DNA of 64,000 nucleotides from an uncultured virus (IMG/VR IMGVR_UViG_2061766007_000848) (IMGVR_UViG_2061766007_000848), one strand, 5' to 3'. Positions 35,132 to 63,777 are shown, numbered from the stretch's first letter. Numbers and translations are program-made. Notes: generated from the letters alone by a model not told the origin.

Positions 35132-36621
35132 TTACGCTTTCACTGTTTTGCCGATGTTGATGAAGCGAACCATCTTCTTCGGTGCATACAGGAACGGAGT
35201 ACCATACAGCAGCACCATGAAGCGGAAGGCAGGACTCAGCACAGCCAAATCCATTTTCATCAGCGGAGCCAATTGAGCAAACTCGACAACCTCGTTATCG
35301 AATTGGAACAGAATTGACTGGTCGCAATCAGGCAGGAATCGGTTCATATCGCGAATCAAACCTGCTGAACCGCCATCGTAGCCACGAGTTACGTCATCCA
35401 ACGATACCTCGAACAATGGGTAGAACTCGCCTGTTGCGGTACCACCTACTTTGGTACGATAGATGCGATAAGCGGTTGCCGGATTTACGCCACCACCATC
35501 AGCAAACTTCAGGTCAACAGCGCAACCTGCGGTTGCAGCAACAGCGGTGCTATAGATAGCCATATCCGACTCACCAAAGCGGTTGATTGCAACGACGCCA
35601 TAGTAAACGTTACCAGCATCGGTTGAACCCCACTTGCTACCAGCGACTGAACTTACAACGGCTGCCGGAGTTGACAANNNNNNNNNNNNNNNNNNNNNNG
35701 AGAAGTTGCAGCCGAAGCAGAAGTCTTGCTCGGAAGTTTCTTGAAGAAGACGTCATGGTTCAAACCGATGCGACCGAATTGCGAGTCAAATGCCTGAACT
35801 CGTTGACCCATGATACCATCGCTCAAACTTGGAGTGTTAGGAACGATGAACTTGTTGCCGTAGAAGTTCTTGACGAAAGCCGAAAGAACTGACGGAGGAC
35901 CATACAGCTGAGTTGCCAAGCCGTAATTCTCAACGATTGAGTTTGCGGCAGTTTCGATAGCGTCCTCAGTAAGTGCAGAACCACGGAGGTCAACTACCAT
36001 CTCAGAGTTCATGTAATCGGCATACGATGCCCAAGCATCAGATTGCTGTTGCTGTGCAAGGAATCCGTTGAATTGCTCGGGAACGATTTTCTCGTTGCCG
36101 AAATACAAACCCTGATTCAGTGTACGCAAAATCCAAAGAGTACCATCTTTCACGGCACGCTCCATTACCGAACCAATCATGGTGTTTACGAGGGTCATCT
36201 GGTGAGTTACGCTCTTGGTCACGCCAAGGTATTTCACCAACTGAGCCCTACGTACGAAGATTGAATCTTCCTCCTCCGGAAGTTCTCCCTCTCGGTTCCA
36301 GCCACCTCGATTAGCACCATAAGAAGTTTGCTGGTTGTACTCCTCTACAGTGTTGTACGCTGCCTTTTTCGGAAGGTCTTTCCAAAGGCGAATATCGCTC
36401 TCACGGAAGGTGATGTGCTTCAGAGTTTTCTCCAAAGATTCAACCTTCAACGGAGCACCCGACGCAGTGGTCAGGTTCGTAGTTTCACGACCAGTGATTT
36501 GCTCAGCAGCAAGAGCCTTGTTCAGTTGGTCAAGGTTTTCGCTACTCTGCATACCAGCGTGGAAACCATCTTGCTGAGCGGCATAGCCATAGTCAGCCAG
36601 ATTAATGCTCAAATTTTCCAT
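35132..36621 (-). CDS. Major capsid protein precursor (SPO1/Twort-like)
   Basis: LNKAL, GAPLKVESLE.TLK.ITF, AYNTVEEY, FNGF and LAPLMKMDLA...FMVLLYG...LYAPKK motifs. Joined across the N-gap 35678-35699. Confidence 0.92.
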
Positions 36622-36642
36622 GTTCACTTTGTTTTAAGATTA

Positions 36643-38207
36643 TTATTTAGTTATCTCAACGCCAAATTCGTTTTTCATACGAGCAATGATGTTCGCTGGA
36701 AGAACCTTACTTGCCTCAAAAGTCAAGCAAGCCTTGCTGAACTCTTCGTCAAATCCCTTTGCAAAGGTAGCCTGGTCAAGCATTTCTGCAACGGCATTCG
36801 GCTGTTTGCTCATAGAAATAGCATTCGTTCTTTTAGCGGTTTCGCCACCCTTGGTGATATCGCCATCCTCTGCTTTTGCAAAGCGACGTTCAACGGGACG
36901 TGCAGCGCTTAAAGATTTCGGGGCAGGAACCTCCGAACCAAATGCCTCCAACTTTTCAGACATTTCGCTAATAGTCTCTTCTTGAGCCTTAACAATGTCG
37001 AGCAATTCAGCTTCACGATTTGCTGCGGCTTCAAGTTTCTGACTTGCGTCTTTTACCATTACACCAAGAGCCTTGATGTATTTAGAATTCATCTGATGTG
37101 ACGTTGCAATCGCTTTCTCAATTCGGTCAAAACGATTTACGCCACCTTTCTTTACTTTGCCGTCCTCTTCATTCTCAACGTCAGCATCCTCTTCATTCTC
37201 TTCGGCTTTAGGCTCGTCGTCATCGGTTTCGTCACCCTCGTTGTCTTCAGCGTCGTCATCGGGTTCCTCATCCTCATAATCGTCATCCTCTGCTTTTTGA
37301 GTTTTTGATTTGCCTTTTTTGATAATTTCGTCGGCTTTGGGGTTGTCGGTTTTTGAACCACATCCCTTTTCGATATCAGCGATATCCATATCAAGCCCAA
37401 GAGCCTCATATGCCTTGCTAATATCTTCATCGGTTACTTTTTTTCGCCCACTCATATTCGCAATTTTTAAAATTAATGAATAAATTTTATCCGCTTTTTC
37501 AATACTTATACCTGGTACATCCTTGAAAACCCTTTCAACCACCTCTGCTTTTCCAAAAGTTTGATTTTTAAGTTTTTTGTCAACTGACTCTTTTTTCAAA
37601 GCAGCACCCGATTCAGTGTCCAAAGATTTTTCTTCTACCTCTACCTCTTCCTCCTCTTCGTCGTCAACATAATCATCAATTTCGCCTTTGATTATGTTAG
37701 CAAACGTTTTTGGATTTTTCGGTTGATGCGTAATGGCTACGCCTGTTATGATAGCCTTGTCGATTTTTTTGTAATCTGGAGAATTTACGTCATTCGATTT
37801 TCGTTTTACAACTTTTCCTTCAATCGAATAACCAAGCCGTCTGGTTTTGGAATTTTTCTCAAGCGTTTCGGCTAATTCCCAAACCTCTTGTGCTATTTTA
37901 CTTGATGGATAAAGTTCCGTTTCAATGTACAACCCCTCTGGACGAATTTCGGCTTTTGTAGGTTCACCAATAATAGCAGCAGGCTGTCCTTTTGCCTGGT
38001 GATGCCAGTTAACCATTCCATTTTCCAAAAGCGGTTTAATATCAAAGCCCTTGGGGTCAAGAAATTCTCCATCGGCATCTTCATCGGAAGTCGAAGCAAT
38101 GCCGCCTAACTTCATAATGGTTTCCCCANNNNNNNNNNNNNNNNNNNNNNNNNNNNNNNNNNNNNNNNCCAAAACGTAAATTTGTCTTCTAAATTCGTCT
38201 TTACCAT
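36643..38207 (-). CDS. Prohead protease fused to acidic scaffold
   Basis: GIAST...DADGE.LDP.GFD, NWHH, LGYSIEG and VAITHQPKNPKT motifs, then an acidic/coiled-coil C-terminus. Start MVKTNLEDKF at 38207. Confidence 0.88.
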
Positions 38208-38220
38208 ATTCCTTAAAAAT

Positions 38221-38252
38221 AAGAAAGGTCAAAAAGCAAAAGCCTTTTGACC
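38221..38252 (-). terminator. Hairpin/terminator abutting a late-promoter motif
   Basis: ggtcaaaaagc-aaaa-gccttttgacc stem followed by a T-rich tract on the minus strand. Confidence 0.6.
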
Positions 38253-39249: not shown

Positions 39250-39606
39250 TTAATTGATTTCCAAATGTTCGGTTGTCATGCTGTTAGCGTTCAGGAACCT
39301 GACTAATTCGGTTACTTTCTCTGAACTATCCATTTTAAGGAATTTGTCCCAAATGCCATTGTATTTCAAAAATTCTTTGAAGCCGTTTTCGATAGCCTGA
39401 ATTTTCAAAGCCTTGTAAATAATGTTTTGAACCCATTCGGGAACTTGGTCAATGGTTTTAGTCGAAGCAACTTCATCATAATAGTCCTGTTCCAAAGCAG
39501 GGCTTAACAACGGGAACTTTCCCTTAAACGGAACCAGCTCGCTTGGTTTCTTGGCGCTAACTATTCCAAGAACCTTATTACCCAAATCAAATACTCTCTT
39601 TTCCAT
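39250..39606 (-). CDS. Hypothetical protein directly downstream of the kinase/ART gene
   Basis: 118 aa ORF, 7 nt after the stop of 39614..42094. Confidence 0.65.
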   Translation of the reverse strand: MEKRVFDLGNKVLGIVSAKKPSELVPFKGKFPLLSPALEQDYYDEVASTKTIDQVPEWVQNIIYKALKIQAIENGFKEFLKYNGIWDKFLKMDSSEKVTELVRFLNANSMTTEHLEIN

Positions 39607-39613
39607 GACCTTA

Positions 39614-42094
39614 CTAAATTGAAGTTACAATTTTACTACGATTCAAAATAATCGTAAACCCATGCCCTGAACTATTACCATCGGGCTGATAAATTCCATC
39701 ATATCCCTTCAAAGCGGCATAAATTCCAAGGTATGACTTATGGGAACCTGAATCCCTATATCCAAGGTTCTTGACAGCGTTGTAAATCCTCGAATAAATA
39801 TCCTTTGGATTAAGTTGCGCCATTTGGGTTTCTTTATTGTATTCATCCTCCTTGTCGTAATAAAGTTTCTTGGCATTATTAACTTTGGTATTCAGCTCCT
39901 GAGTCATTTTGCCGTTTTGAATTTCTTTTTCGGCAGCCGCATTTGCCGGACCAACGCAGTTTGTATTGAAGAACGTGGTAAACTTTTCAGCCTGGTAGTG
40001 ATATGGCGCTGTAAATTGATTCTTTTGTTTCACTGCATTATTATTCCATGAATATTTAGCAATGTAAAGTTCCCGATGACCGATTTTGATACGAACCGCC
40101 TCATCTTCCTTTCCTTGATTCAATAAATCAACCTTTCCGCCGCATTTTTCCACGCAAGGCTTAATGTGCTTCAAAACCGCTTCATCAAACATTGGATAGT
40201 TTCTATGACCTTGAGCATTTCGAGAGCCCCAATCAATGGTTCCTAAATAATCTGAAAGGTCAGCAACCGCCTCTTCGTCGTAGTGCATTTTAGAAAAAAC
40301 TGCTTGCTTAATAATATTGCTTGAATTCATTAAGTCAAGTTCTGCTTTCTTCCAATCCTTCCTTAAATCATCAAGTTCTTCTTTCAACTTTTTAATTTGC
40401 GGATTGCTAACAACCGACATGCCCATTGCCTTAATTTCGTCCAAAAGGTCTTCAGCGTTCACAATATTAGCACCTTTCTTCCAAAACATTTTAGCAACTG
40501 CGTCTTCATTTCCATGAGCATATCCCGTAGCGGATTCAGAACCCCGATAGGCTGCTGACGATTTCCAGTTCGTTTCGTTGCTGTTATTATCCGTAAGCGG
40601 TTTTGATTTAACAGTATCACTTCCCTTATTCGATACGTCATCTGAATGGGCGTAAATTCCTTGACCCCAAATTCCGTATTGACCAAAGTGGCAAAAGTCC
40701 GAAAACTTAAAGTCCTCCAAAAAAGAAACGCTGTCAAAGCCACGCATCATCAGAGGCCATTCAGTTGTCTTGCGTTGCTTCCAAAAGTCGCTTTCACTTA
40801 ACACCTCTGGTCTCGCATCAAAGCCCCTTTGCTTACAAATATTTGCAAGCAACGCCCAACCCTGGTCATCAGTAGCCGTCAAAATCGAATCACTGCTAAC
40901 CTTACAATTTGTTTGACTTTCGGTTTCGTCAAGCAATTCGGCAATTGTATCCTCATCTAATTCGGCATACATTTCATCTTCGGGCTTCAGCTGGCGTGGA
41001 AGAACCTTTCCTAATTTTGCCGCTGCTTTTTGAGCCTTAATGGCAGCCTGTCTTGAAATCTCATCGGAAATTTTCTTAAGATTATCGAAACGCTGACCCA
41101 TTATTATCGCCAGGGAATCCTCACCAATTTCTCTAAGGTAGTTAACAACGTCATCTTTCTTGTTAAGAAGTTCCTTGATTTGATTTAATTGCCCATCATC
41201 GGTCAACTGCATAGCAATACCTGGATTATATTTTTGCATACTTTTCCAAGTACTGTAAACGTCGCCATCAAAGGTTTTCTTACTACCTTGCGCTCTGTAG
41301 TCTAAACAACCGCCATTATCAACACGAATTACTTCACCATTAGCGTTTTTAATCAAACAGTTGTCATTCTGATAAACATCCCAGTTGGCAATTAAGACAT
41401 CGGCAATGAAGCCCTTTGACATGTTAGCAAAATCAGAAGACGTTGGAGCGTGCGTTCCCGGAATAAATCGGCTCAAAAGAACCGCCTCACCATTATCGTC
41501 ATAAAGTTCATAATCGGGTGTTTTCAACCCCATTATTCCATACAACTGATTGGATAGATATTCGGCTTTTACATGGTCCGAATTAGTATTGCTGCCCTTC
41601 TTAAGAACGTACTGATTTCCATCAGCATCCTCGACTAATTTTGCGCCTGTCGAACCGCCTAAAGTTTTCACAACCTTCAATGTGCTCAAATCATTAGGAA
41701 ATAGGTCGTTAACATACGCTTGTTTGCCTTGTATGCTTTGGTCGCTTAATTTAGCACCTCGTCCTATTTCGGCTTGTGTCTTTTGACCTTTCCTTACTAC
41801 GTGCCAATCGTACTGAATTTTTGAACCTACCTTTGTAGCCGAATAAACATAAAGAACGCCATCGACTACCTTTGTTTGACCTGGAACAATCGCCTTTGCT
41901 ATTTCTTTGTCTTGCTCTACTTCATTAATAGCGTCAATACAAGATTTAGCGACTATTATTTCATAGTCATAGTTTTCAACAAGCCCCTTTTGAATCTTGT
42001 AATTATTGCACGCTTTTATCAGCGTATCAATAGAACAATCGCCCTGGAGTTGAGCCAAAGCGATTGTGTCCAACGATTTTCTCAGTTTGTCCAT
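39614..42094 (-). CDS. Putative virion-packaged effector: leader + PI3/4K/HipA-like kinase + ADP-ribosyltransferase-like domain
   Basis: Kinase motifs LGGSTGAKL, YVLK, AEYLSNQLY, ANWD....DN and RVDNG. ART-like motifs MRG, GIWGQGIY, A.GYA and GYDGI....IILNRSKI. Confidence 0.7.
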   Translation of the reverse strand: MDKLRKSLDTIALAQLQGDCSIDTLIKACNNYKIQKGLVENYDYEIIVAKSCIDAINEVEQDKEIAKAIVPGQTKVVDGVLYVYSATKVGSKIQYDWHVVRKGQKTQAEIGRGAKLSDQSIQGKQAYVNDLFPNDLSTLKVVKTLGGSTGAKLVEDADGNQYVLKKGSNTNSDHVKAEYLSNQLYGIMGLKTPDYELYDDNGEAVLLSRFIPGTHAPTSSDFANMSKGFIADVLIANWDVYQNDNCLIKNANGEVIRVDNGGCLDYRAQGSKKTFDGDVYSTWKSMQKYNPGIAMQLTDDGQLNQIKELLNKKDDVVNYLREIGEDSLAIIMGQRFDNLKKISDEISRQAAIKAQKAAAKLGKVLPRQLKPEDEMYAELDEDTIAELLDETESQTNCKVSSDSILTATDDQGWALLANICKQRGFDARPEVLSESDFWKQRKTTEWPLMMRGFDSVSFLEDFKFSDFCHFGQYGIWGQGIYAHSDDVSNKGSDTVKSKPLTDNNSNETNWKSSAAYRGSESATGYAHGNEDAVAKMFWKKGANIVNAEDLLDEIKAMGMSVVSNPQIKKLKEELDDLRKDWKKAELDLMNSSNIIKQAVFSKMHYDEEAVADLSDYLGTIDWGSRNAQGHRNYPMFDEAVLKHIKPCVEKCGGKVDLLNQGKEDEAVRIKIGHRELYIAKYSWNNNAVKQKNQFTAPYHYQAEKFTTFFNTNCVGPANAAAEKEIQNGKMTQELNTKVNNAKKLYYDKEDEYNKETQMAQLNPKDIYSRIYNAVKNLGYRDSGSHKSYLGIYAALKGYDGIYQPDGNSSGHGFTIILNRSKIVTSI

Positions 42095-42107
42095 CGGAAA
42101 AAGTTTT

Positions 42108-44163
42108 TTATCCTATAAGCAATTTCTCCGCATCCTCAAGCGAAAGGTCTCCAAAGTCAAGGAACATTTCTGCTTTTTTGGTTTCTTTATAAGTTTCACC
42201 GAATAGGTAGGCATCCACGCTATCCTCACCATAAAGAATTTTGTATTTCTTTGGGTCTTTCTTTTTCAGTTCTTTTTTACGCTTCAGGAATTCCTCCTTT
42301 TCCTTAATTCTTCCCTCCTCCGAAAAATCATCATTCAACGCTTTTTCGAGGTCATAGTCATCAGCCTTAATTAAGTTCAAAGCCTGAATTTGCCAAGGCA
42401 CGTTTGTACCAACTTGAACCGAACCATTAATTGTTCGGGCGCCAGTAGAACCGCCCTTTGAGATTTTCGGACCAATAAGCGATACCAGCTGAATGAAAGT
42501 ACGTGGTGTGAATTTTGCTGGGTCAGCGTCGTCGAGATTTTCCTCCAACCAATCCCTTGCCATATCACGAATTTCCATCTGCTCTTTTTCGGTTGGGAAC
42601 TGCTTTTCAAACGCTTTTTGATAACTACCTAAACCCATAGTCTTGTAGCGTTTGTTTATCAAGTCCATACTTTCGGCTCTCGTAAACGCCATATCGTTTA
42701 CCAAACCACGGCTCATGATAGCCTTTGCATCCTCACTTGCGTTAGTGATAGCGGCTACATNNNNNNNNNNNNNNNNNNNNNNNNNNNNNNNNNNCGTTTT
42801 TGCCTGTTTGCGGATTCATGAAAATTCGGTTCTTTGGATTATTGTCCGTAATTTTCTTCATCAAAGCCTTCATTGGCCCTGATTTCGTTGTAAGAATTTT
42901 ATCCGAATCATCGAATACAAGAATTCTTGGATGTTCGTCGCCGTTGTCGTCAGTATAGGTTCCATTGAACTTTGCTAACATTTTTCGGAAGTCAAGTTCA
43001 TCGTCTGGGTCAGAAAGCATTACATAACCCCAATCTTTGTTGCTTGCATTATCTTCATCATCCAACTTTTTCACATTCAAGTAGTCGGCTATTGCTTCCC
43101 AGCCATAAGTCTTACCTGCACCAGCACCGCCTGCCGAAACAAACAGCGGAGCCGTATCATATTTGATGAAATTTTCGTATTGCTCATTTAGCAAACCGAT
43201 TTTGTTATCTGGATTCAAATAGCCCGCAGTTGTCGGTTCAAAATAGGTTTTGAAAGCGTCATACTGCTGACGGTCATTCAAAGTTTTGAAGTCGTGGAAT
43301 TTACTACGAATTCGTGGGTCGTTCTTATTCAACCAACCTAAATCACCCTCTGGAAATTCCTTCATGAATTCTTCGGGATTTAAGCCCTTGAAATCAATGT
43401 TGATTGAAGGTGCCTCATCAGCATTGTAAGTGGCTTTCATAGCCTCCTTTAAGTTATGCTTGCGCTCTCTCGATTTCCATTCTTTTTCCAAAGTTCCCGC
43501 AACATCAATATCTTTTTCATCAATACCACGAGCAGCTGCCTCTTCGTATGCAAGTTGGCGGTTTTGCCAAGTGTAGTTTTGGTTATTCAAAACTTTCAAA
43601 AGGTCGGCATCCGATTTTCCCGCATAAAGTGTACGCAGTTTTGAAGCCGATGCTGTATGGTTTTCCAAAACGCCATTGGCACCCATTTTACGGACAACCC
43701 AATTTTCGGGAACCTCAAATTCAACAGAAGGCTTTTTTGTTTGGTACGTAACTTTTGCTGTCGGTTTAGGTACGTAACCGCCCTGAAGGTCTGAGCTGTC
43801 AACTTTTGTTTTGTCGTAGTCGTCACGCCCTTTCAAAGCATTGAAAGCAATTTGACGAACAGCCGAATCAAGTTTCTTATCGTTAACAACTTTTTCAAGC
43901 GAACCTGTCGTAGCATTTTGTGCATAGTCGGCAAGTTCATCGGGTGTCATATCCTCAAAATTTTTCGGGGAAGTAGTTTGAGTTGGCGCTGAAGTCGGTT
44001 TCGGTTTTTGAGCAGCTGGAGCCGCATTGCCACCGCCTTGGCTTTGATTCTTTTTTATTCCACGCCAATCGAATTTTCCTGGAGCGTATTCAGTCCATAC
44101 TAACTTTCCGTTTGGGTGCATATCACCCACTTGGTGCTGAGCCTTTTGAAATTCTTCCAACAT
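42108..44163 (-). CDS. Putative virion-packaged protein: leader + helical repeats + AAA+ ATPase
   Basis: Walker A GGAGAGKT, Walker B ILVFDDSD and Arg-finger-like AIMSR. ORFs 42742..44163 and 42108..42716 join across an N-gap (VAAITNASEDAKAIMSRG). Confidence 0.72.
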
Positions 44164-44210
44164 AGTATTTAAATTTTTTTTAATGATACTTTATTGAAAA
44201 TAATAACTGT

Positions 44211-45664
44211 TTAATCCGTTTCCCATTCAATTGGTAGTTCTATGTCATAAAAATCTTCCATTATCTCTTTTGTTATTCTTTTTACGTTTTCGGAATCCTT
44301 CCCTTTTTCAAGTTCCTTGATTGCTTTTCTACCACCCTTTGCTAACCGAATAATTTCTTCGGCATTTTTGGTTGCATTGAATAGTTCGTAAACCAACTCA
44401 AAGTTATGCTGCGTATCTTTCAAGAATTTAGTCGGTGACATTTGCATTGCTTTCTTCAGCGCCTTTGCGAATTGCTTTGGCGTTGCATCCCATGGAATAA
44501 TTATTGCTCGAATGTTTTCAAATAGTGGGTCGTATATTTCCTCGTCAGCCGTTTTAGCAAGCCCCCTATAATCGCGCAAAACAGGATATGCTCCAGATAG
44601 CATTGCTTCGATGATGAAGCCGTTTATATGCGTCCGGCAATATTGAGCGTAATGCTCCGCCCAGGATGGGTCAATCGCAAATTTTGTATTCTTTAAGGTT
44701 TCGATGACTTCACCGCCCGACATTTGCCCCATATATTCCATTCCAAATTTTTCGGCTCTTTTCCAAAGCGAAATTTTGCCGTCAAGTTTTTCGGGAAGGT
44801 CTGGGTCACGCTTCAAAGTGCACATATAATTACTTTTTGTTTTAGTTTCGCTGGTCATGTAGTTGTATTCAATTCCTGTACCAGCAATCTTAACTTTAAA
44901 GCGTTCTTCCTCGCCCTTTTGGATATACGGAACAGCGGCAATCAATTCTTCCATATGCTTCATAGATTTAAACATATGGGCGGCAAAGAAGTCTTCCGAA
45001 CGTTTATTCATCATTTTGACGGGCATTTTAGCCTTATTCGGAAAATATCGTGGATTGAGTAGCAAAGTCCTCGGAATTCCTATTTCAGCGCAACACTGAT
45101 AGGCTGCTAAATNNNNNNNNNNNNNNNNNNNNNNNNNNNNNNNNNNNNNNNNNNNNNNNNNNNNNNNNNNNNNNNNNNNNNNNNNNNNNNNNNNNNNNNN
45201 NNNNNNNNNNNNNNNNNNGAAGGCAAATCAAAAAATTTCCACCAAAAGTCGAATTTAAAACCTTTCTTGTCCCAAGACGAACTTTTGGTCGGCATGAAAT
45301 TCCAAAGAATAATATCCGCATCCTTAACAAGTTCCTTCCAGCGCTCAACCGAATTTTTTTCATAGACGCCAATTCGATTAGATGGTGGAAGAAAATAGCC
45401 GTAATAATTATTGCGCCAATAGCCCGTCACCTCATCTTTTTCATACCCGCCAGCCTGGGAATGAAATTTGATTTTACGCTGATGTTCACCGCTTTCAAAT
45501 TCCTTAACTTTTTTATCATAAACTTTTTGCGTAGTTGATGACGGGGTCATTTGGGCTACATCTACATCGTGTCCCAAATCCCGAAACGCTTTCAACATAC
45601 TTGCAACATACTCGACAATTCCGCCATATTTGGCAATCTGAAAATCGGCTATAAAAATTTTCAT
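44211..45664 (-). CDS. GT-B (GT4-like) glycosyltransferase
   Basis: N-terminal MKIFI......YGGI.......AFRDLGHDVDV and C-terminal IDPS...GFIIEAMLSGAYPV. Joined across an N-gap. Confidence 0.78.
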
Positions 45665-45674
45665 ATCAAATAAT

Positions 45675-46364
45675 TTAAAACGGCAATTTGTCAATAGCCC
45701 TTGAATAAATTTCTTCGGGCAATTGTTTTTTTATGTAACCTTGCTCGTAGAACATCAGCCCCGATTGTGACCGATAGAATTTTGAAGCCAATTTCCACTT
45801 CACTTCATGAAAATCCTCTACAGGAACTTTCCGCATCAAAATATATTCTTTGTTTTGTTGTTCAACCTGGGGTTTCGAACGCTTTTTGTATGAATGCGGA
45901 AATTCCCGATAATATTCTAAATAGGCAACCATTGACTGAAGCGTTTCCCGAACAAAAAAGTGGAATGGATGTCCAACCCCCCACGGAGCCAAAATTGTAT
46001 AATCGGGGTTCTGCTTCAAAAACTTTTTGACCCAGGCTTTCAGCGTTTCCTCGATTTCATTAAGCGTATCACGCCCGAAATATTCATTCAAGTATTTGTA
46101 GACGTTTTCCAAGACTATTCCTTTCGGGTACGTCTTATTGTATCCGTAGTAACTTTCATCCTTGAAATCAAGCCCCAAATGGTAGCAGGGGATATTTAAA
46201 AACTCGAACAACCGCTCGTCTTCTGCCGCTCTTCTTTCATCGTTTTCAACTACCAAAACCTGAACTTCGTATTCAGGAAAAAATAAAACGTGGGAACAAC
46301 TAAACAAAGCGTCATCGGAATGCGGAGAAACAATCAAGTATTTCTTTACTTCTTTTTTGCCCAT
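45675..46364 (-). CDS. PIG-L/LmbE-family de-N-acetylase
   Basis: IVSPHSDD, R.AED, APWGVGHP.H and Y.SQ motifs. Confidence 0.82.
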   Translation of the reverse strand: MGKKEVKKYLIVSPHSDDALFSCSHVLFFPEYEVQVLVVENDERRAAEDERLFEFLNIPCYHLGLDFKDESYYGYNKTYPKGIVLENVYKYLNEYFGRDTLNEIEETLKAWVKKFLKQNPDYTILAPWGVGHPFHFFVRETLQSMVAYLEYYREFPHSYKKRSKPQVEQQNKEYILMRKVPVEDFHEVKWKLASKFYRSQSGLMFYEQGYIKKQLPEEIYSRAIDKLPF

Positions 46365-46366
46365 CT

Positions 46367-47299
46367 TTATTTACTTACTTTAATGTTCAACTTCACCCCT
46401 TGTAACTTTGGATTAGTTGAAACTTTCTTGACGGGCTTAACAAACGCTCTCATTTCAGCATCCCAATCAAATCCAGGCTTTTTGTGATTTATAGTGCAAC
46501 GGCAGTAAGGATGAGTTGGCGAAATAGTCGGTTTCCATTCATCAACTTTCCGCCCAATATTATTTCCATTTGCAACGATTTCTTTCAACTTGAAAACCTT
46601 TGGTTCGCTTTCTGGGTCGTCTGGGTCTGTTAAATAAAGTTTCATGCAATGTTTACATGCTTCTTCATATACATCGAAATAAACTTCCGCATCCGGACCA
46701 TACTCACGTAATATACTTTGAGCCCTTCCCGAATTATATGCTTCATGAGTCAAGTAGTAAGCAATTCGCAACCAATCTACCTCCCAATCCTTTGAAGTCT
46801 CAGCAAGGTCGGCTGCAAGCCCCCTGGCTCCTGTTCGGAGTTGGATAGCGTTTATGGTTTTTTGCTTTATCATATTTTGGACTACAACCGCCTGCTGTTG
46901 GTTATTCCTTAAAACAGCGTTGCTCAAACCTGTTCGCATTCTACTACCTAAATTGGTAATATCGGTGTAAGCACGATTTTTTACAGTCTCCAGGGCAAAT
47001 TCTTCTTCTTTGGTCAGCGGAATAAAGTTTCCAGAGGCCAGGAACCTTTGGAATTGAGCGTATGTCATTTTCTTTGCCCTTGCGTCCCCGATTGCTTCTG
47101 CTAAAATACCGAAAAGAAAAGCGTGCTCAATGACGCCTTTCTTGTTTTTGTATTTGTCGAGATTGATTCCAGCGGCAAGCAAAATACTTTTATCGGTTTG
47201 GGACAAATAATTCAATCCCAACTGGCTTGCAATAAATACCAATTCATATCTTTTCAGAATTGATAGTAAGTCCTGTATTTGGCTTTGGGTGAAAATCAT
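46367..47299 (-). CDS. MuF/SPP1 gp7-like minor head protein
   Basis: WLRIA......AYN.G, ACKHC..LY and PTHPYCRC motifs. Confidence 0.8.
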   Translation of the reverse strand: MIFTQSQIQDLLSILKRYELVFIASQLGLNYLSQTDKSILLAAGINLDKYKNKKGVIEHAFLFGILAEAIGDARAKKMTYAQFQRFLASGNFIPLTKEEEFALETVKNRAYTDITNLGSRMRTGLSNAVLRNNQQQAVVVQNMIKQKTINAIQLRTGARGLAADLAETSKDWEVDWLRIAYYLTHEAYNSGRAQSILREYGPDAEVYFDVYEEACKHCMKLYLTDPDDPESEPKVFKLKEIVANGNNIGRKVDEWKPTISPTHPYCRCTINHKKPGFDWDAEMRAFVKPVKKVSTNPKLQGVKLNIKVSK

Positions 47300-47301
47300 G
47301 A

Positions 47302-48318
47302 CTAATAGCCCTCTGTATCTACGTTGCTATACAAAACCATTTTGATATCTTCTGAAGGGTGAACCATAGCATTTTTGTCTAAATCTATACCGCCATCAAA
47401 GTCCTTGAGTCCGCTATAAAATGGTCTAAGATTTTTGTTGTTTTTGTTATTCAGAATAAGGTGCAAACCACCGCTTGGCGTTTCGTACTCAGCCGCAACT
47501 TTAATATTGGCTTNNNNNNNNNNCACATAGTCTTTAGTTTGCTGTTCACTGCGGCTATTTATCGAAATATAAGCACGAGCGTTGTTGTAACTTGCTGACT
47601 TAATGATGTCATCCTTTATTTTATCAAGTTCCTGGGGACTGTGAACAATATAGTAGTCCAGATATTCAGCGCCCGAATGGTACGAACCTTTTGCCTTTCC
47701 CGCCATTTTCCATTGCCAAGCNNNNNNNNNNNNNNNNNNNNNNNNNNNNNNCCGCTTAATCACCTGGACAAAATAAACGTCATCGGGTGAATCAAAAGTC
47801 ATGTAATTCTTTACCAAATCGAAATTATCAACAATATTCCTACGCTGATAAAGAACATTATCATTCTTCAATTCGGATTCCGTAATAACATCGCCATTGA
47901 TAGTCCTTCCTGTATCATTGCCGTCGTAAATCAAACGCCAATTCCCCTTTGGAGTTCTACGTAGGTTGAATTTTGTTACATCATCGAAAGCCCCATTGAT
48001 TTGCGAAAAAATTTCTTTCAAAGCGTTCACGCCATGTTTGCCGTTCACACCAGTTCCCTCGATTATTTTTGAACCGCCTTGTTGAACTACGTGCCAATCG
48101 TATTGGGTTTGAGAACCTACTTTCGTTGGCGACCAAACGTAGGTCTTGCCATTATAGGTGATAACATCTCCAGGCATTCGGGCTTTTTCAAAATCTGAAC
48201 CGAATTCGTCAGCAAAAGCCTTAACAATATCCAAATCTTCATCGGGCTTATTATTCCCGAAAGATTTTGCGATGTTGCTTGCTATTGCCGCTCTATGTGA
48301 ACTAATATCCTCGAACAT
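47302..48318 (-). CDS. Putative virion-packaged protein: leader + YDWHVV module + AEP/primase-like C-terminal domain
   Basis: Leader HRAAIASNIAKSFG...FEKA; C-terminal DVYFVQVIKR, ARAYISINSRS and ETPSGGLHLI. Enzyme assignment is tentative. Confidence 0.6.
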   Translation of the reverse strand: MFEDISSHRAAIASNIAKSFGNNKPDEDLDIVKAFADEFGSDFEKARMPGDVITYNGKTYVWSPTKVGSQTQYDWHVVQQGGSKIIEGTGVNGKHGVNALKEIFSQINGAFDDVTKFNLRRTPKGNWRLIYDGNDTGRTINGDVITESELKNDNVLYQRRNIVDNFDLVKNYMTFDSPDDVYFVQVIKRXXXXXXXXXXAWQWKMAGKAKGSYHSGAEYLDYYIVHSPQELDKIKDDIIKSASYNNARAYISINSRSEQQTKDYVXXXXANIKVAAEYETPSGGLHLILNNKNNKNLRPFYSGLKDFDGGIDLDKNAMVHPSEDIKMVLYSNVDTEGY

Positions 48319-48320
48319 GA

Positions 48321-48518
48321 TTATAAAGTTTTTTCGGTTTCTATTTTAAATTCTTCTTTGTTCTTAATAGCCGATGCGGTTGCTTGCGCCAAGTATTTTA
48401 AGACTTCTGCAACCGCTGAAGCAGTGTTCTTCCTCCATTCCTTTATGAAAACATTTTCATATTGCGTAACCGCTGGAAATGGGGAAGGGATGAAATGGCT
48501 GTGTTTATGCCCCGACAT
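48321..48518 (-). CDS. Small hypothetical protein
   Basis: 65 aa ORF tightly packed between neighbours. Confidence 0.55.
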   Translation of the reverse strand: MSGHKHSHFIPSPFPAVTQYENVFIKEWRKNTASAVAEVLKYLAQATASAIKNKEEFKIETEKTL

Positions 48519-48529
48519 ATTTGAATCGT

Positions 48530-49819
48530 TTATGCATTTTCCTCATCATCGTCAGGATTTTCATCCTGATACAAACTGACTATTTCGTTAACAGTAGCGC
48601 AAGACAAAGCAGCTGCCGCTAATTTTTTTGAGTCGTCATCCCAGTGATTTTCCATCCAAGAATCACTTTTATGATTATTCAAAATATCGGTTCTTAAAGC
48701 ATAATCAGNNNNNNNNNNNNNNNNNNNNNNNNNNNNNNNNNNNNNNNNNNNNNNNNNNNNNNNNNNNNNNNNNNNNNNNNNNNNNATTTTTTAATTAAAT
48801 AGTTATCATACAAAGAAAATAACTTTTTAGGTGAAATCTTTTTTCTAATTAATTCGTCAACCTGTTTATCGGCTTCACCCTGACTTAAATCAATGAATTG
48901 TTCAANNNNNNNNNNNNNNNNNNNNNNNNNNNNNNNNNNNNNNNNNNNNNNNCATAAGGTCGTCGAACAAACCGCCTTTCCCCTGGAATTTTTCATTATA
49001 CAAATCTTTCAAAATTCCATTAAAAGCACGTTTTACTTCAGGAGTTGATTGCTTGAAAGTAGAATTATCTATTTTCAAATCATTTACCCTGGAATTATCC
49101 GATGGTTTTTCGCTTTTATCTTCACCCCTATCTTGTTCTTCGTCTTCATAATGCCCTTCGTATTTAACATAGGCATCAACAAGTTCTTTTCTCAAATTTG
49201 GGGTATCATTATTTCTTAATAAATCAATCATGTATTTTCTTGTAGGATAATCGGGCATATTTATGCCGTTATCTTTAGCAATTTTAATGACTTCTTTTTT
49301 AAATTCGGGTTTTGCATATTCTCCTGTTGCATAAACACCTATTCTTGTGAATAAATTATTCTTTGGGTCTTTGTCCATTTTTTTCTGACGCTTAACCAAA
49401 TCCTTTTCATTTTTTGCGTCTGATAAATTATCGCTGCTTCCACGTTTCTTGAGTTCCGCCTGGGCTGCGGCTTTCACTTCGGGCGCTGCATTCTTATCGG
49501 CTGCGGCACGCTTCAATGCATCATCACTTGCACCCGATGCGTAGTTAGCAAGTTTTCCTGAATCAGCCTTTCCTTCGGGCTTTTGTCCGCCCTCTTCAGC
49601 TTTCTTACCTTGCGGTGTTGCTCCACCCTGTTCAGGCGCTGCGGATGAGCCGTATTTTTGACCAACTCGTTTTAGCCGTCTGTTTTCAGCGGTATCTTTA
49701 TAAACACCAGAACGTGCTTTCTCGAATTCATCGTTCAAGTCAAATCCAACCCCAAAGGATTTTTCGATATTACTTTCAATGCTGCGACGATGCGCCATAA
49801 GTTCTTCTAATTGTCCCAT
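48530..49819 (-). CDS. Putative virion-packaged protein with shared leader and helical repeat
   Basis: Start MGQLEELMAHRRSIESNIEKSFG at 49819, below a CAGTTATA motif. Continues across two N-gaps to TAA at 48530. Confidence 0.65.
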
Positions 49820-53887: not shown

Positions 53888-54142
53888 TTATCTTGAATAG
53901 GTGTAATTTTCACGTTCACTCCACGCTGAAACAAAGTCCATGGTTCCTTGCGCATATTCGCACTTGGTTACCCCCGATTCAGTTTTCTTACGCATAATGC
54001 GCCAGCCGTTTTCGTCTTCCGAAGTGCCCATGGGTGCCCAACCATAGTAAGTTGTATCCTCTGTTGACGCATCAACAAAAGGTTCAGGCAAATATTCGCC
54101 GAATGTACGCACAATTGGTGCGTTAGTCTTAACTTCTTTCAT
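53888..54142 (-). CDS. Small virion protein
   Basis: YYGWAP.G.......WRI.R........YA.G...F...W..R...TY motif. Confidence 0.55.
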   Translation of the reverse strand: MKEVKTNAPIVRTFGEYLPEPFVDASTEDTTYYGWAPMGTSEDENGWRIMRKKTESGVTKCEYAQGTMDFVSAWSERENYTYSR

Positions 54143-55816
54143 TTTCTTCGTTATTTAACATGTTATCAAATGCTTTTATGAATGCTTCTTTCAAGCCACC
54201 CTTTTCTTCCTCGTCTTCACCGCCCTCTTCTGAATAGTTATCAAATGGGTTGCTGCCACCCTCTTCCTCGTCTTCGGAAACGTATAAGTCAAACGGATTT
54301 CCACCGCCTCCGTCAAAACCGCCCATTCCGCCACCCATACCAGCCTGTTGCTGTTGCATGGCTTCAGCGTTTTTGTTTTGGATTAAGGTCGGGTTGCTTG
54401 GGATGTCGCCAAAGTCCAAAGGCTTCATTTCGTACTTCTCACGTGCCTCGTTGACGGTCATGAAGCAGTTAACTTTCTTGATATCCATTTCAAGTTCTTC
54501 CTGGATTGACATGCCGTTCAAGCCCATAAATACGAATTCAAAATCAGGGTTGATTTGCTCGACAATGTACTTGTTTATTTTACGCTGAAGGAATTTCAGC
54601 ATAGGGTACAAGCCCTTGTCCTTGGAGTGCTGCAAACGTTCCTTTTCGCTGCCCTCGAATAAACCACCATTGCCGCTTGACCTACTTATATCCCAACCGA
54701 TTTCCGATGGGTCAATTGAATAAANNNNNNNNNNNNNNNNNNNNNNNNNNNNNNNNNNNNNNNNNNNNNNNNNNNNNNNNNNNNNNNNNNNNNNNNNNNN
54801 NNNNNNNNNNNNNNNNNNNNNNNNCATTGCTGTTTAAACTGCTGAAGAGCTGCTTCGTTATTATTGCCTTTCACTCTTAGCAATCCTTTCGGGGCAGAAC
54901 CCTGACTGAAGAACCGCCTATTGTACTCATCGCCCCAAAGCATTGATGTTACAACGTTGATAAGTTCTTCAAGTTCTGAACAGCCGTAGCCGTTAGCGAA
55001 GATTGAAGTTGACGGGTTCCGGATACCAAAGCACAATTCCCAAGGATAGAATTCATTGACTTTTGCGTTCTGGTACACTTGAACGTATGACGGATAATAG
55101 CCATGAATTTTCTTTCCAAATTCGGCTCTATCCTGCCAAACTGCAGCACCTTCTCGTTTGAAAAATGCGTTATCATAATCCTTGTCGAAATATGAATCAG
55201 CAATCCGGAAGGTTGCGGCATCCGTAGCGATAAAACTTTCCAATTGGCCTCTTCGGTTGCGAATACACTCAAAGGTCATCTGGTCATATGTTAGTGAGTC
55301 GTCAACAATTTTACGAATAAAAGTATCAAAGTCGTCATGCCCCCAATCGTTAACATTTCCACCCTTCAATAGAAAATCCGTAATGGCGAAGGCAATCTTT
55401 TTATCCTTTGTATCCATTTTTTGTTCAACCCCGAATTTTGGCTTTTTCCGAATAACAAAGCCCGTTGAATATTTGTTTTCCTGGGGTTCTGCATAATCCG
55501 CCACCTGATTTTTTCTGGTCTTAATAATCGAATTAATGATGGGTGTTTTCGACATTCTTTTCAATGTCGTATAAGTTAACGAAAAAGCCTTATCCTTGTA
55601 ACCCAAGTTTGCGTTGAATTCCAATGGGTCTATAAAAAATGCTTTCGGGTTCTGCTCTACTGCTTTTGATTGTAATTGCTGAAACACCTGGGTCGCCTTG
55701 ACCATATCTTCAGGTGAGTCTGAGCGCAAGGCTTTTTCAAGCGTGCGGAATCTTTTCGCTTTTAATTTTGCCTCCGCAAGAGTAAGTGCGTCCAATTGTT
55801 TTGCGTATGATTGCAT
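54129..55816 (-). CDS. Portal protein (SPO1/Twort-like)
   Basis: IIKTRKNQV, DSLTYDQ, NGYG.SELE, FFSQGSAPKGLL, IDPSEIG, SKDKGLYP.L.F and TVNEAR motifs. Joined across an N-gap. Confidence 0.93.
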
Positions 55817-58435: not shown

Positions 58436-59111
58436 TTAAAATCCTAACGCAAAAATTTGACGAGGAGTAAGCGTANNNNNNNNNNNNNNNNNNNNNNNNN
58501 NNNNNNNNNNNNNNNNNNNNNCCTTCAAAATTTCACAAGCCTTAATATCTACCATAATTTGGCAAATAGCGTAAACAATGTCGTTGTAAGCCCTACGGCA
58601 TTCTGCTTGCTCACGATTTTCAGGAATATTACCTTTCCGACTACTCAAGNNNNNNNNNNNNNNNNNNNNNNNNNNNNNNNNNNNTTTCGGGGAAGTAAGT
58701 TTCATTCCAATCGTAAATCTTGTAACCGCAATCGGTACAAATTCCATCGGTGTACCACTTATCAGGATTCCTGGTTGGGGCGCCACCGCAATCTTTTAAA
58801 GCCATATCGGCTTCAGACTGTTTAATAGCCAACTTGGAATTCAATTCCGACAAAAGAATGTCAGCCTGGGCTTTGAGTTCCTTACCTGTTTTTGATACCT
58901 TGATGTCTGAATCGCAACCCGAAATGGCTTGCATGACGTCTGATTTTTCAACATCGTTTTCTTCCGCCTTATCGAATTCCTCTTCGTATTCATCAAACGG
59001 ATTAGTTTGTTGCCCCTTGGAAACATCCTCTTCAGCATCGACATTGAAACTGTTTAAAATGCGTTCCCGCTGAGCGGCACGTGCGTTTTTGATTGCTTCT
59101 TGAATTTCCAT
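58436..59111 (-). CDS. Putative internal head protein with leader
   Basis: Leader ARAAQRERILNSFN with VSKG, FDKA and VEKS sites; preceded by CAGTTATA. Joined across N-gaps. Confidence 0.55.
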
Positions 59112-63120: not shown

Positions 63121-63777
63121 TTAAACCCTGTTGTGATTAGGTTCTTTTAAACCCCTCTTAACTTCACTCAAATGCCGTCTTTGCTCTTCAGTCCAACGCT
63201 TTCCATAATTTGGATTTTTATCCCCAATGTATCTGCCCTTCATTTTTTCTGACTGTTTACGTTTTTGTTCTTCAGTCGCAGGAACCCCTTTGTTATGCGA
63301 TGGTCTTCCTAAACTTTTCTTTCTCATTTTATCCCTTGTTTCTTCTGAATGCTTTCGCCCTGTAAATGTTCCAGGGTGTGTTTTAAAATATTCTTTCATT
63401 ATTTCAGATTGACGCTTTTTATATTCAGGGTTTTGAGTTGTTTGCCTATTTTTAATAGTCATTTTTTCAATCACTTCAGGCAATTTAGCAGGATTGTATT
63501 CCGAAGTGTTTACGTCGCCGTCGGCTATATTGTAACCAATGTTTTTATCTTGGGAATGATACTTTTTTATGTAAACATATTCCCAAATACGTAACTCATG
63601 AAGCGTTTTGCAGCGCCTTAAAATCTCGCGTTTGAAATTTTCTTTACCATGCTTTTTCAAAGCAAATTCAAAAGCGGTTCCGCTACCTAAATAACCATCG
63701 TTTTCATCACCCTCATGTTTTCCAATATAAATTTTACCATTGGTTAAACATGTTGTTTTGTAAATAAAACCTATCAT
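63121..63777 (-). CDS. GIY-YIG homing endonuclease with NUMOD3 repeats (Seg-like)
   Basis: FIYKTT...NGKIYIGKH...YLGSG and GYNI motifs; HSEETR.KM, TEEQK.K.S and WTEEQR..LS repeats. Confidence 0.9.
   Translation of the reverse strand: MIGFIYKTTCLTNGKIYIGKHEGDENDGYLGSGTAFEFALKKHGKENFKREILRRCKTLHELRIWEYVYIKKYHSQDKNIGYNIADGDVNTSEYNPAKLPEVIEKMTIKNRQTTQNPEYKKRQSEIMKEYFKTHPGTFTGRKHSEETRDKMRKKSLGRPSHNKGVPATEEQKRKQSEKMKGRYIGDKNPNYGKRWTEEQRRHLSEVKRGLKEPNHNRV

Follow-up and report, generated by a model that had tools for sequence, protein, structure and literature searches.

In a 64,000-nucleotide stretch of DNA from an uncultured virus (IMG/VR IMGVR_UViG_2061766007_000848), called the window here, we found four minus-strand genes (A, B, C and D), located between the portal and the prohead protease genes, whose products have related N-termini and unrelated remainders. 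The shared N-terminal parts consist of a leader, a junction of the form [I/F/L]-x-K-[A/G/S] and a small module, behind which each protein carries its own cargo. By analogy with phage T4, these genes may constitute a lysine-specific counterpart of the T4 capsid-targeting system, built on a head of the SPO1/A511 type, in which enzymes would be packaged, trimmed and injected, and we lean slightly towards this reading. An earlier note on the region (positions 39250 to 49819), made from the sequence, had proposed in a similar way that a plug-and-play leader loads diverse enzymes into the head.

Related N-termini on unrelated proteins

The four genes had been described as having common N-terminal parts and unrelated C-termini, and the comparisons bore this out. 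The beta modules of A and C were identical at 21 of 40 positions (53%, E 3e-10), and 11 of the first 21 residues of C and D were identical (E 1e-4). The pairwise match between B and C alone was weak (E 0.44), and the module was placed in B by the family profile together with the alignment of its relatives (alignment A7). With it, the beta module that had been claimed to follow the last K-A site was located in A, B and C; no fourth copy was detected when the six-frame translation of the window was searched with the module profile. The coordinates of all these features are given in Table 1.

A leader hidden Markov model (HMM), built from 67 database proteins none of which came from the window, matched only C (E 4.3e-13) and D (E 4.4e-12) among 1084 six-frame open reading frames (ORFs), confirming the two main leaders of the earlier note. 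The looser leader that had been proposed at position 59111 obtained marginal support: the ORF located there (58641-59111) ranked third among the 1084 (E 0.079), gave a BLAST E-value of 8e-4 against the N-terminus of protein P0097, and began with a leader resembling those found at the same genomic place in locus L110 (loci numbered L are viral or chromosomal contigs fetched for comparison). Recent gene conversion between the leaders or modules of the window was considered and rejected, as only 46 of 77 aligned nucleotide columns are shared between the C and D leaders, and 95 of 172 between the modules of A and C.

Family libraries had little to say about these proteins. No match to A, B, D, the leader or the small neighbouring ORFs g39250 and g48321 was found in Pfam, PHROGs or NCBIfam, the sole match of gene C was to phrog_14949, a family without an assigned function, and the Protein Atlas gave no usable match for leader plus module.

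Leaders, junctions and modules

At least three types of leader, with lengths from 7 to about 67 residues, were distinguished. Type 1, present in C and D, reads MFE-x-I-x2-HR-x-AV-x-ENI-x-K-[AS]-F; type 2, found in relatives of C, ends in ILK-[AS]; and type 3 is the 67-residue leader of A. Every type ends in [I/F/L]-x-K-A, the general form of the junction being [I/F/L]-x-K-[A/G/S]. The beta module has about 35 residues and three strands, with the consensus H-x-VGD-x-HPNGKWVWTEY-x-PGKFDWR, and gene D bears a second type of module, R-x-GVY-x-D-x3-NR-[RK]-L-x-RVG-x2-YG, at the corresponding place.

The AlphaFold2 (AF2) model of A (34 sequences, mean predicted local distance difference test (pLDDT) score 86.5) contained three leader helices, a coil and three strands, and its confidence was lowest at residues 67-70, at the IAK↓A junction (the arrow marks the proposed cut). 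In the model of residues 1-90 of C (19 sequences, mean pLDDT 64), helices were found at 3-19 and 31-38, the coil at 39-51 held FEKA, and three strands lay within 52-78 with pLDDT of 78-84. In both models the last junction was located in the coil between the leader helices and the module. Foldseek gave nothing for the beta module against the PDB at E<=0.001, and the best Z in VIA wide was 2.8 (ribosomal S4e, LysW, WWE domains, RPA), which is at noise level; consequently, no fold was assigned to it. The module strings NRKLGRVG, NRRLGRVG, LGRVGQ, KFDWR and WVWTEY were not found in literature text.

The junction motif and the prohead protease

All the [hydrophobic]-x-K-[A/S/G] sites listed in the earlier note were present. 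We scored the motif [LIVFMY]-x-K-[ASG] and obtained the expectation from 5000 shuffles of the same residues. Residues 1-70 of A contained five sites versus 0.48 expected, a number that none of the 5000 shuffles reached; residues 1-46 of C contained three versus 0.32 (P 0.0004), residues 1-37 of D two versus 0.14 (P 0.003), and the scaffold part of the protease-scaffold gene 14 versus 2.35 (0 of 5000 shuffles). The remaining part of A contained three versus 4.6 expected. The leaders and the scaffold thus exceeded the background of the window, 0.54 sites per 100 amino acids (aa) in 21 other ORFs; mature A, the N-terminal part of B (0.22 sites per 100 aa) and the MuF-like protein were at or below it. 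A control motif with Glu was not enriched, and the enriched one has Lys, so the [L/I]-x-E feature of the T4 gp21 type does not apply here.

Conservation was evaluated in 23 gene families of the related loci. The protease-scaffold had 15.5 motif sites per protein, and 11 of them were kept in at least 80% of 26 homologues. Five sites were conserved in A, four within the first 68 residues, and the leader sites at aa 6, 27, 51 and 68 were kept in at least 90% of 30 homologues. B had three conserved sites and the capsid protein two, tail and other families had 0-1, and five control motifs gave 0-3 conserved sites per family (0-2 in the head and cargo families). L35, K37 and A38 were nearly invariant behind a variable N-terminus in the capsid alignment (A5), and [L/I]-[I/L]-E-K-A was kept in 11 of 12 distinct portal homologues. 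The recurrence of the motif in scaffold, capsid N-terminus and portal, which had been read from the window, was therefore conserved across homologues.

The protease domain of locus L014, which is 73% identical to that of the window, aligned with A511 gp84 over 206 positions with 62 identities (30%, E 1e-22). In this alignment a conserved IIK↓G fell on the FMK↓S of A511, and the sequence behind each of the two imitates the start of the mature capsid protein of the phage concerned. In the record of the A511 capsid protein Cps, the mature peptide is annotated as starting at residue 24, behind ALK↓S; the scaffold of A511 contains x-S-K-S in abundance. Because the protease is homologous to A511 gp84 and a K↓S cut is annotated in Cps, the motif is likely to be the cleavage site of the phage's own prohead protease. 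Pfam gave no protease family for the protease-scaffold protein even at E<=1. The idea that the tag is a copy of the scaffold tail was tried and discarded, as the leader HMM had no match to the protease-scaffold ORF at E<=20.

Relatives and the context of the junction

When A was used as query, 30 related loci were found, with near full-length homologues of 35-66% identity (one of them truncated at a contig end and one split in two ORFs). The gene order was conserved: portal, five conserved genes, a variable slot, g48321, the MuF-like gene, a PIG-L-like gene, a glycosyltransferase gene, B, A, g39250, protease-scaffold and capsid. This conserved order implied that A and B are fixed core genes, and the polymorphism that had been proposed for the whole group does not include them. 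It was found instead in the slot upstream of g48321 and the MuF-like gene, which contained three tagged genes at most, and none in at least 9 of the 30 loci.

Seventy-five module ORFs were found in these 30 loci, always with the module near the N-terminus and with at least ten groups of C-termini. When 1.84 billion representative proteins were searched exhaustively with the module profile, 266 of them (clusters at 50% identity) matched at E<=0.001. We inspected 151 of them and set aside seven repeat proteins with many partial matches, leaving 144 representatives, in 137 of which the module started at residue 80 or before, and in five beyond residue 120. The 119 representatives with at least 100 residues behind the module formed 47 single-linkage C-terminal groups, and this was the outcome of the HMM search for variable C-termini that the earlier note had recommended. 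The members looked up carried no public label other than 'hypothetical protein'.

The relation between junction and context was analysed with 150 distinct module ORFs from all the loci fetched, counting a head gene within 7 kb as a neighbour and a motif within about 10 residues upstream of the module as a junction. The motif preceded the module in 132 of 134 ORFs with head-gene neighbours versus 4 of 16 without them (Fisher p 9e-13), and the two ORFs of the first group that lacked it seem to be artefacts of anchoring or of start-codon calls. Among the representatives it stood ahead of 131 of 139 N-terminal modules versus one of five internal ones. The second module was located directly behind [hydrophobic]-x-K-[A/G] in all 16 distinct occurrences, including fusions behind B (L030) and behind the MuF-like protein (L105), and one protein contained a leader, a second module and a beta module in a row, with a junction before each module. 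The junction motif goes with the head-gene context and not with the fold of the module.

A megablast search of the region against phage records gave no match, nor did a tblastn search with protein P0129. When B was compared with cultured phages, the match was confined to the NTPase region among the best 10 of 85 records, six Bacteroides phages being among the other 75. A small domain (…PDGSFPIRN…DLKNAI…GRA…) was observed as a leader-tagged protein of 92 aa in L009 (5405-5680), and the same domain (…PDGSFPIRN…) was inserted in the C-terminal part of B, flanked by junction-like E-K-A, in L012, L014, L021, L023 and L025.

Exchange of cassettes at the junction

The flanking DNA of loci L004 and L006 was 94% identical, and their MuF-like proteins 99% identical. 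Both had a slot gene with the same leader, ending in ...GDGDNVEKA, followed by a beta module in L004 and by the second module and another cargo in L006, and the nucleotide homology between them (84% over 138 nt) stopped at the junction. The contents of the slot also differed between L008 and L011, whose MuF-like proteins were 99% identical. Cassettes are thus exchanged at the junction between near-identical phages, and exchange at exactly this point would explain how such repertoires diversify. In the L004 gene (3053-3610), an in-frame stop occupied the place of the first Trp of the module (GK-stop-VW); the gene could be a pseudogene, the stop an error of sequencing, or the codon recoded.

Tagged genes were also found between the terminase-side genes and the portal gene in L110, L115 and L091, and ORF 58641-59111 occupies this place in the window, suggesting that there is probably a second polymorphic slot upstream of the portal.

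Beta modules outside head clusters

A scan of one genome per prokaryote species detected the beta module in 13 loci, of which 10 were labelled Bacteroidales (Prevotella, Barnesiella, Bacteroides, Paraprevotella and others), and this suggests the host range. The chromosomal module sequence, VGDKHP-x-KPWVWTEYAPGKFDWRK, was found in L039, L040, L044 and L041; in L041 (9422-10930) the protein had the module and an AAA+ part only, without FtsK-gamma. By reading of the sequences, none of these four loci had a junction motif (a VSKG counted by script in L044 was a chance match). The presence of the beta module in chromosomal proteins and in proteins of phage early regions indicates that it is unlikely to be the capsid address itself. 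Of the plug-and-play tag proposed in the earlier note, the leader and junction on unrelated enzymes of the head cluster therefore stood, and the YDWHVV module as a head-specific element did not. To judge from the sequences, the element specific to the head cluster would be the leader together with the junction; the beta module may bind DNA or a partner, and the chromosomal proteins that contain it may share a target with the phage proteins.

Two other kinds of module protein were observed. In proteins such as L094:7194-8477 and L111:7623-8465, encoded in early regions, the module was located within histone-like linkers rich in Lys, Ala, Glu and Pro, and a conserved C-terminal domain (…KLIMKGYR…FFEN…RYG…PEGLVK) was present. 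In L046 (8435-10423), as well as in L047 and L048, a variant of the module was located near the C-terminus of a protein (663 aa) that occurs in Barnesiella and other Bacteroidales; the neighbours of the L046 gene are a 1304-aa ORF and two genes with TerD domains, and the group may be a stress or defence island.

Cargo and the MuF-like gene

Of the two enzymes that had been assigned to A, the kinase was recovered and the ADP-ribosyltransferase (ART) was not. A was the cargo protein that was modelled among those for which structure prediction had been recommended, and a Foldseek search with the model gave 57 PDB matches at E<=0.001; nearly all those listed were protein or small-molecule kinases or kinase-like domains. 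Of the residues that mark a bilobal kinase fold (a Gly-rich loop, Lys, Glu, and catalytic Asp/Asn and D-x-G), G147-S-T-G, K165, E178, D239, N243-N245 and D259-N-G261 were invariant. Pfam matches to HipA-like proteins (HipA_C) were weak, and 10 of 34 members had them. Beyond the kinase-like domain lies a large conserved C-terminal region, and the C-terminal 400 residues were well modelled, with no fold assigned to them; Pfam, NCBIfam and PDB sequence searches found no ART family in it, and the Foldseek list for whole A was filled by kinases, the domain not having been searched alone. The kinase region was homologous to parts of very large proteins (1177-2146 aa) of cultured phages, one of which, the 2146-aa protein of Yersinia phage fHe-Yen8-01, is annotated as 'phage particle associated'. 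The label 'ADP-ribosyltransferase' is carried by such homologues, and their match is to the kinase region of A only.

Gene B encodes, in this order, M-L-E-E-F-Q-K↓A, the beta module, a linker of low complexity, a region of the P-loop NTPase type with Walker A (SAGGAGAGKTYG) and Walker B (VFDDSDK) motifs, and a C-terminal part in which more sites, L-x-K-A and E-K-A-E, are conserved. The AAA+ ATPase proposed for it was consistent with these Walker motifs (conserved G377-G-A-G-x-G-K383 and D450-D451); PDB profile matches were weak (PcrA, E 0.0066; RFC, E about 0.9) and Pfam gave no match. For the cargo of C, the AEP-like assignment had as its lead a language-model comparison, in which the nearest named Atlas cluster was PF24387, AEP-like (score 0.92, 169 shared features); Pfam and the PDB gave no match, and the strings LLDVD and SGGLHLIL of protein P0001 were read by eye as AEP motifs. 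In a set of 55 tagged proteins from which A and B were left out, Pfam recognised five zincin-like peptidases, one InPase (E 9e-51) and one glutamine-deamidase toxin, and nothing in 47; one NUDIX protein was found among the 144 representatives.

The MuF gene around which the system had been thought to cluster is best called MuF-like. Its match to PF04233 spanned positions 3 to 111 of the 112 of the profile, but with an E-value of 0.081, below the cut-off, and 5 of 16 homologues matched at E<=1. Its product stands alone, without a toxin or any extra domain, and the toxin-carrying MuF protein suggested by the earlier note was found in other relatives. In L056, L057, L061 and L105 the C-terminus of the MuF-like protein was fused through an [I/L]-E-K-A junction to a module and cargo, which in L056 and L057 was a glutamine deamidase (Gln_amidase, 42 bits); a small overlapping ORF was located behind the MuF-deamidase fusion, as in toxin-immunity pairs. 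Long MuF genes encoding 568-711 aa (L002:2950-4653, L010:4051-6075, L012:3805-5937 and L030:1681-3678) were considered as toxin fusions and rejected, as three of the four matched intein/Hint domains, two of these also matching a DUF559 endonuclease-like domain.

Head genes and neighbouring genes of the window

The minus strand carries all the genes from 33 to 64 kb of the window. The sequence contains 41 runs of N (for example 47514-47523, 42761-42794 and 35678-35699), which are shorter than the sequence that they replace and keep neither its length nor its frame; ORF lengths and gene counts near them are therefore unreliable. The capsid, portal and glycosyltransferase genes and gene B are each split by such runs. 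ORFs 42742-44163 and 42108-42716 correspond to one gene, B, since both pieces aligned to a single protein (alignment A7). Gene C encodes 338 aa in the window, and database proteins 96% identical to it have 401-404 aa, indicating a true length of about 404 aa (P0001). The C-terminus of gene D is masked.

Table 1. Features of the head-gene region in the window
Feature	Position	Strand	Description
Major capsid protein	35132..36627	-	phrog_752; split by N run 35678-35699; conserved L-N-K↓A about 35 residues from the N-terminus
Prohead protease-scaffold fusion	36643..38232	-	phrog_1028 (E 3e-36); long scaffold-like tail; presumed processing enzyme; richest motif carrier
g39250	39250..39606	-	Conserved 118-aa ORF directly downstream of A; homologue adjoins A in 29 of 30 loci
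Gene A	39614..42094	-	826 aa; leader aa 1-67, junction IAK↓A aa 65-68, beta module aa 68-103, kinase-like domain about aa 125-290
Beta module of A	41786..41893	-	AIVPGQTKVVDGVLYVYSATKVGSKIQYDWHVV; modelled strands 74-77, 80-85, 96-99
Leader of A (aa 1-67)	41894..42094	-	Three helices; five sites LRKS, LIKA, IQKG, VAKS, IAKA
Gene B	42108..44163	-	About 600-730 aa in relatives; split by N run 42761-42794
MuF-like minor head protein	46367..47299	-	310 aa; C-x-x-C and HPYCRC motifs
Gene C	47302..48318	-	Leader MFEDISSHRAAIASNIAKSFG...DFEK↓A (aa 1-45, 48184-48318); beta module aa 46-81 (48076-48183); then cargo
g48321	48321..48518	-	Conserved ORF, 61-73 aa, just upstream of the MuF-like gene (synteny)
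Gene D	48902..49819	-	Leader MGQLEELMAHRRSIESNIEKSFG...EFEK↓A (aa 1-34, 49718-49819); second module type RSGVYKDTAENRRLKRVGQKYG (49649-49714)
Portal protein	54129..55816	-	PHROG portal families; split by N run 54725-54824; L-E-K-A at aa 26-29
Candidate fifth tagged gene	58641..59111	-	Leader MEIQEAIKNARAAQRERILNSFNVDAEEDVSK↓G; between terminase-side genes and portal; marginal support

The capsid protein was nearest to those of Bacteroides phages DAC16-DAC23 (45% identity), then to that of Chryseobacterium phage MA9V-3 and then to those of SPO1/A511-type Herelleviridae. For g39250, which has no Pfam, PHROG or NCBIfam match, a role as partner, inhibitor or chaperone of A is a guess. In five loci, among them L002:1547, L003:1204, L004:3610 and L030:335, g48321 was fused to the N-terminus of proteins composed of junction, module and zincin peptidase, with Pfam matches to Peptidase_M90.

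Positions 44211-46364 contain a PIG-L-type deacetylase gene and a group-1 glycosyltransferase gene, the latter split by an N run (its product has about 485 aa in relatives); both are located between the MuF-like gene and B in nearly all relatives; many of these add beside them a radical-SAM-like ORF of about 318 aa (CxxxCxxC). The products might modify virion proteins or DNA. The ORF at 63121-63777, which starts with MIGFIYKTTCLTNGKIYIGKH, resembles a GIY-YIG homing endonuclease, according to motifs read by eye.

Discussion

According to the reading that we prefer, the N-terminal propeptides would recruit enzymes into the assembling prohead, with the leaders presumably binding one of its components, and the prohead protease would trim them at [I/F/L]-x-K↓[A/G/S], as it would the arm of the capsid protein, the N-terminus of the portal and the scaffold. 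The trimmed enzymes would stay in the head until the next infection, when they would leave it together with the DNA to act on the host, while the beta module would remain on the mature protein with another role, perhaps in binding DNA or a partner. The enzymes would be a kinase-fold protein and a P-loop NTPase and, in relatives, a zincin peptidase, an InPase, a NUDIX protein and a glutamine deamidase. The dependence of the motif on the head context is the most telling line of evidence that it is a protease site. A bolder version, in which leader, Lys-small junction and module form a general capsid-loading code of a clade of Bacteroidales myophages, any enzyme can be swapped in by recombination at the leader or junction, dozens of injected effectors exist, and the retained module may direct them to the target of the host FtsK-gamma/AAA+ protein, is a possibility to which we are inclined to give less credit than to its denial.

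Several observations weigh against the packaging of these proteins by a cleaved tag. In the A511 site the hydrophobic residue is at P2 and not at P3. Several leader sites (K27 and K50 in A, K33 in C) fall within predicted helices, and only the last site lies in a coil. Gene B has just 7-10 residues or so ahead of its junction. Two motif sites are conserved in the glycosyltransferase, so some occurrences cannot be cut sites, and leaders and scaffold, compared with the leader HMM, show no similarity to each other. The head regions of the cultured relatives DAC16 (Bacteroides) and MA9V-3 contained no module. Finally, the module also occurs outside head clusters: in proteins of about 740 aa (L039:8711-10924, L040:1017-3242 and L044:8723-10945) it stands between FtsK-gamma and an AAA+ domain with AAA_lid_6, and in several related phages a second, internal copy is present in Lys-rich proteins encoded in a region without head genes, again without the junction motif. 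Judged by these sequences, part of the shared N-terminus seems to have a function unrelated to capsids.

The main rival explanation builds on these last copies, for which it accounts: the shared N-terminus would be a working domain of late proteins that are not packaged, the module binding DNA or a common partner and [I/F/L]-E-K-A being a linker or a helix cap. The chromosomal genes of L039 and L041, the two loci scanned for this, have ordinary metabolic neighbours, the early-region copies sit in Lys-rich linkers, and neither Foldseek nor VIA gave the module a known fold, all of which suits a working domain. We nevertheless think it improbable, because the motif is absent from just these copies outside head clusters and present in nearly all those inside, precedes the unrelated second module every time, joins MuF-like proteins or B to downstream modules, and recurs as a conserved feature of the portal, of the arm of the capsid protein and of 11 scaffold sites; enzymes of the injected-effector type among late head genes would also be hard to explain without packaging. 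The tagged proteins might otherwise, instead of assembling together with the scaffold core, be tethered to the portal vertex through the MuF-like protein or g48321, as has been proposed for MuF polymorphic toxins, the junction releasing them from carriers of the MuF type. The slot directly upstream of these two genes, the fusions of g48321 to module-zincin proteins and of MuF-like proteins to module and cargo, and the binding of SPP1 gp7, of the MuF family, to the portal, as stated in part of PMC5576092, are in keeping with tethering, which becomes quite unlikely when it is considered that A and B are located downstream of the MuF-like gene beyond two other genes, that B is nearly devoid of a leader and that the MuF assignment is below the Pfam cut-off. 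Least probable of all, in our view, is that the tagged proteins are assembly factors or parts of the scaffold core, degraded during maturation and neither kept nor injected. The density of motifs in the leaders does resemble that of the scaffold, and B has further conserved sites near its C-terminus; the folded cargo, however, is poor in the motif (the rest of A and the N-terminal part of B), the cargoes are enzymes, one of them a deamidase of the toxin type that has a likely immunity ORF, and since the slot is empty in some loci its genes are not needed for assembly.

The principle of loading proteins into the head for injection is already known from T4, giant phages, P1 DarB, MuF toxins and polyvalent proteins. 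The T4 capsid-targeting sequence (CTS) has 10-20 residues, and foreign proteins can be packaged with it, according to the passages of PMC5694885 considered here. As far as the sources consulted describe it, the T4 system (IPI-III and Alt, with gp21) likewise has short N-terminal propeptides on unrelated proteins, which end in a head-protease motif also used on scaffold and capsid, and its cargo is kept in the head and injected, a fate proposed here from genes alone; here too, several unrelated proteins whose genes lie among the head genes begin with the same short peptide. Unlike in T4, the protease is a homologue of A511 gp84, Lys at P1 followed by a small residue replaces [L/I]-x-E, there are at least three leader types of widely differing length, a conserved module lies behind the cut, and cassettes are polymorphic between close relatives. 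The ejection and inner-body proteins of phiKZ and SPN3US are also paralogous head-internal families with N-terminal propeptides containing several protease motifs, as reported in sections of PMC5694885; their motif is A/S/G-x-E, their protease of the T4 type and their processing shown by mass spectrometry, in the same sections, and we found no sequence relation to the leaders or modules.

In P1, an N-terminal signal of less than 30 residues, that of DarB, suffices to send a reporter into the capsid, and the cargo is an anti-restriction enzyme; the Dar system differs in having one large cargo loaded stepwise with helper proteins, and the sections of PMC9024508 on which both statements are based describe no shared tag or protease junction. 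MuF polymorphic toxins of temperate phages (Jamet et al. 2017, PMC5576092) carry variable toxin or enzyme domains on a head-associated carrier encoded beside the portal, and L056 and L057 are similar, whereas in the window the MuF-like protein stands by itself and each variable domain has a gene and a leader of its own; the main text of PMC5576092 does not mention cleavage. In polyvalent proteins of phages and conjugative elements (Iyer et al. 2017, PMC5512222), domains of the zincin peptidase, InPase and kinase types, with NUDIX as a partner of InPase, are predicted to be packaged and injected, and a kinase type without C-lobe is present in those of Bacteroidetes phages, in the portions of that paper considered. 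The repertoire found here overlaps with theirs (zincin, InPase, kinase, NUDIX) and the predicted fate is the same. Polyvalent proteins, however, have many domains in one giant polypeptide, the criterion being two or more catalytic domains, whereas here there are mostly single genes, each with leader and junction, and in A one kinase-like fold was found; the main text of PMC5512222 does not mention a leader or N-terminal signal. The Bacteroides crassvirus PhiCrAss001 likewise keeps several phage-encoded proteins inside its capsid, to be ejected, according to parts of PMC10172136, but it is a podovirus of another order, its main text does not mention proteolysis or propeptides, and no sequence relation was seen. 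What is new here is the head lineage, the Lys motif, the two retained modules, the breadth in Bacteroidales phages, the exchange at the junction and the module in common with a host protein.

If the proposed system is real, the capsid-targeting principle of T4 would extend to another head lineage and another protease specificity, in phages of Bacteroidales, a dominant order of gut and rumen. It would provide a sequence rule for recognising packaged and injected proteins in metagenomes (a leader or junction followed by a module, inside a head cluster), a catalogue of unannotated candidate enzymes for host takeover or anti-defence, and a candidate tag for loading foreign or engineered cargo into the capsids of gut phages.

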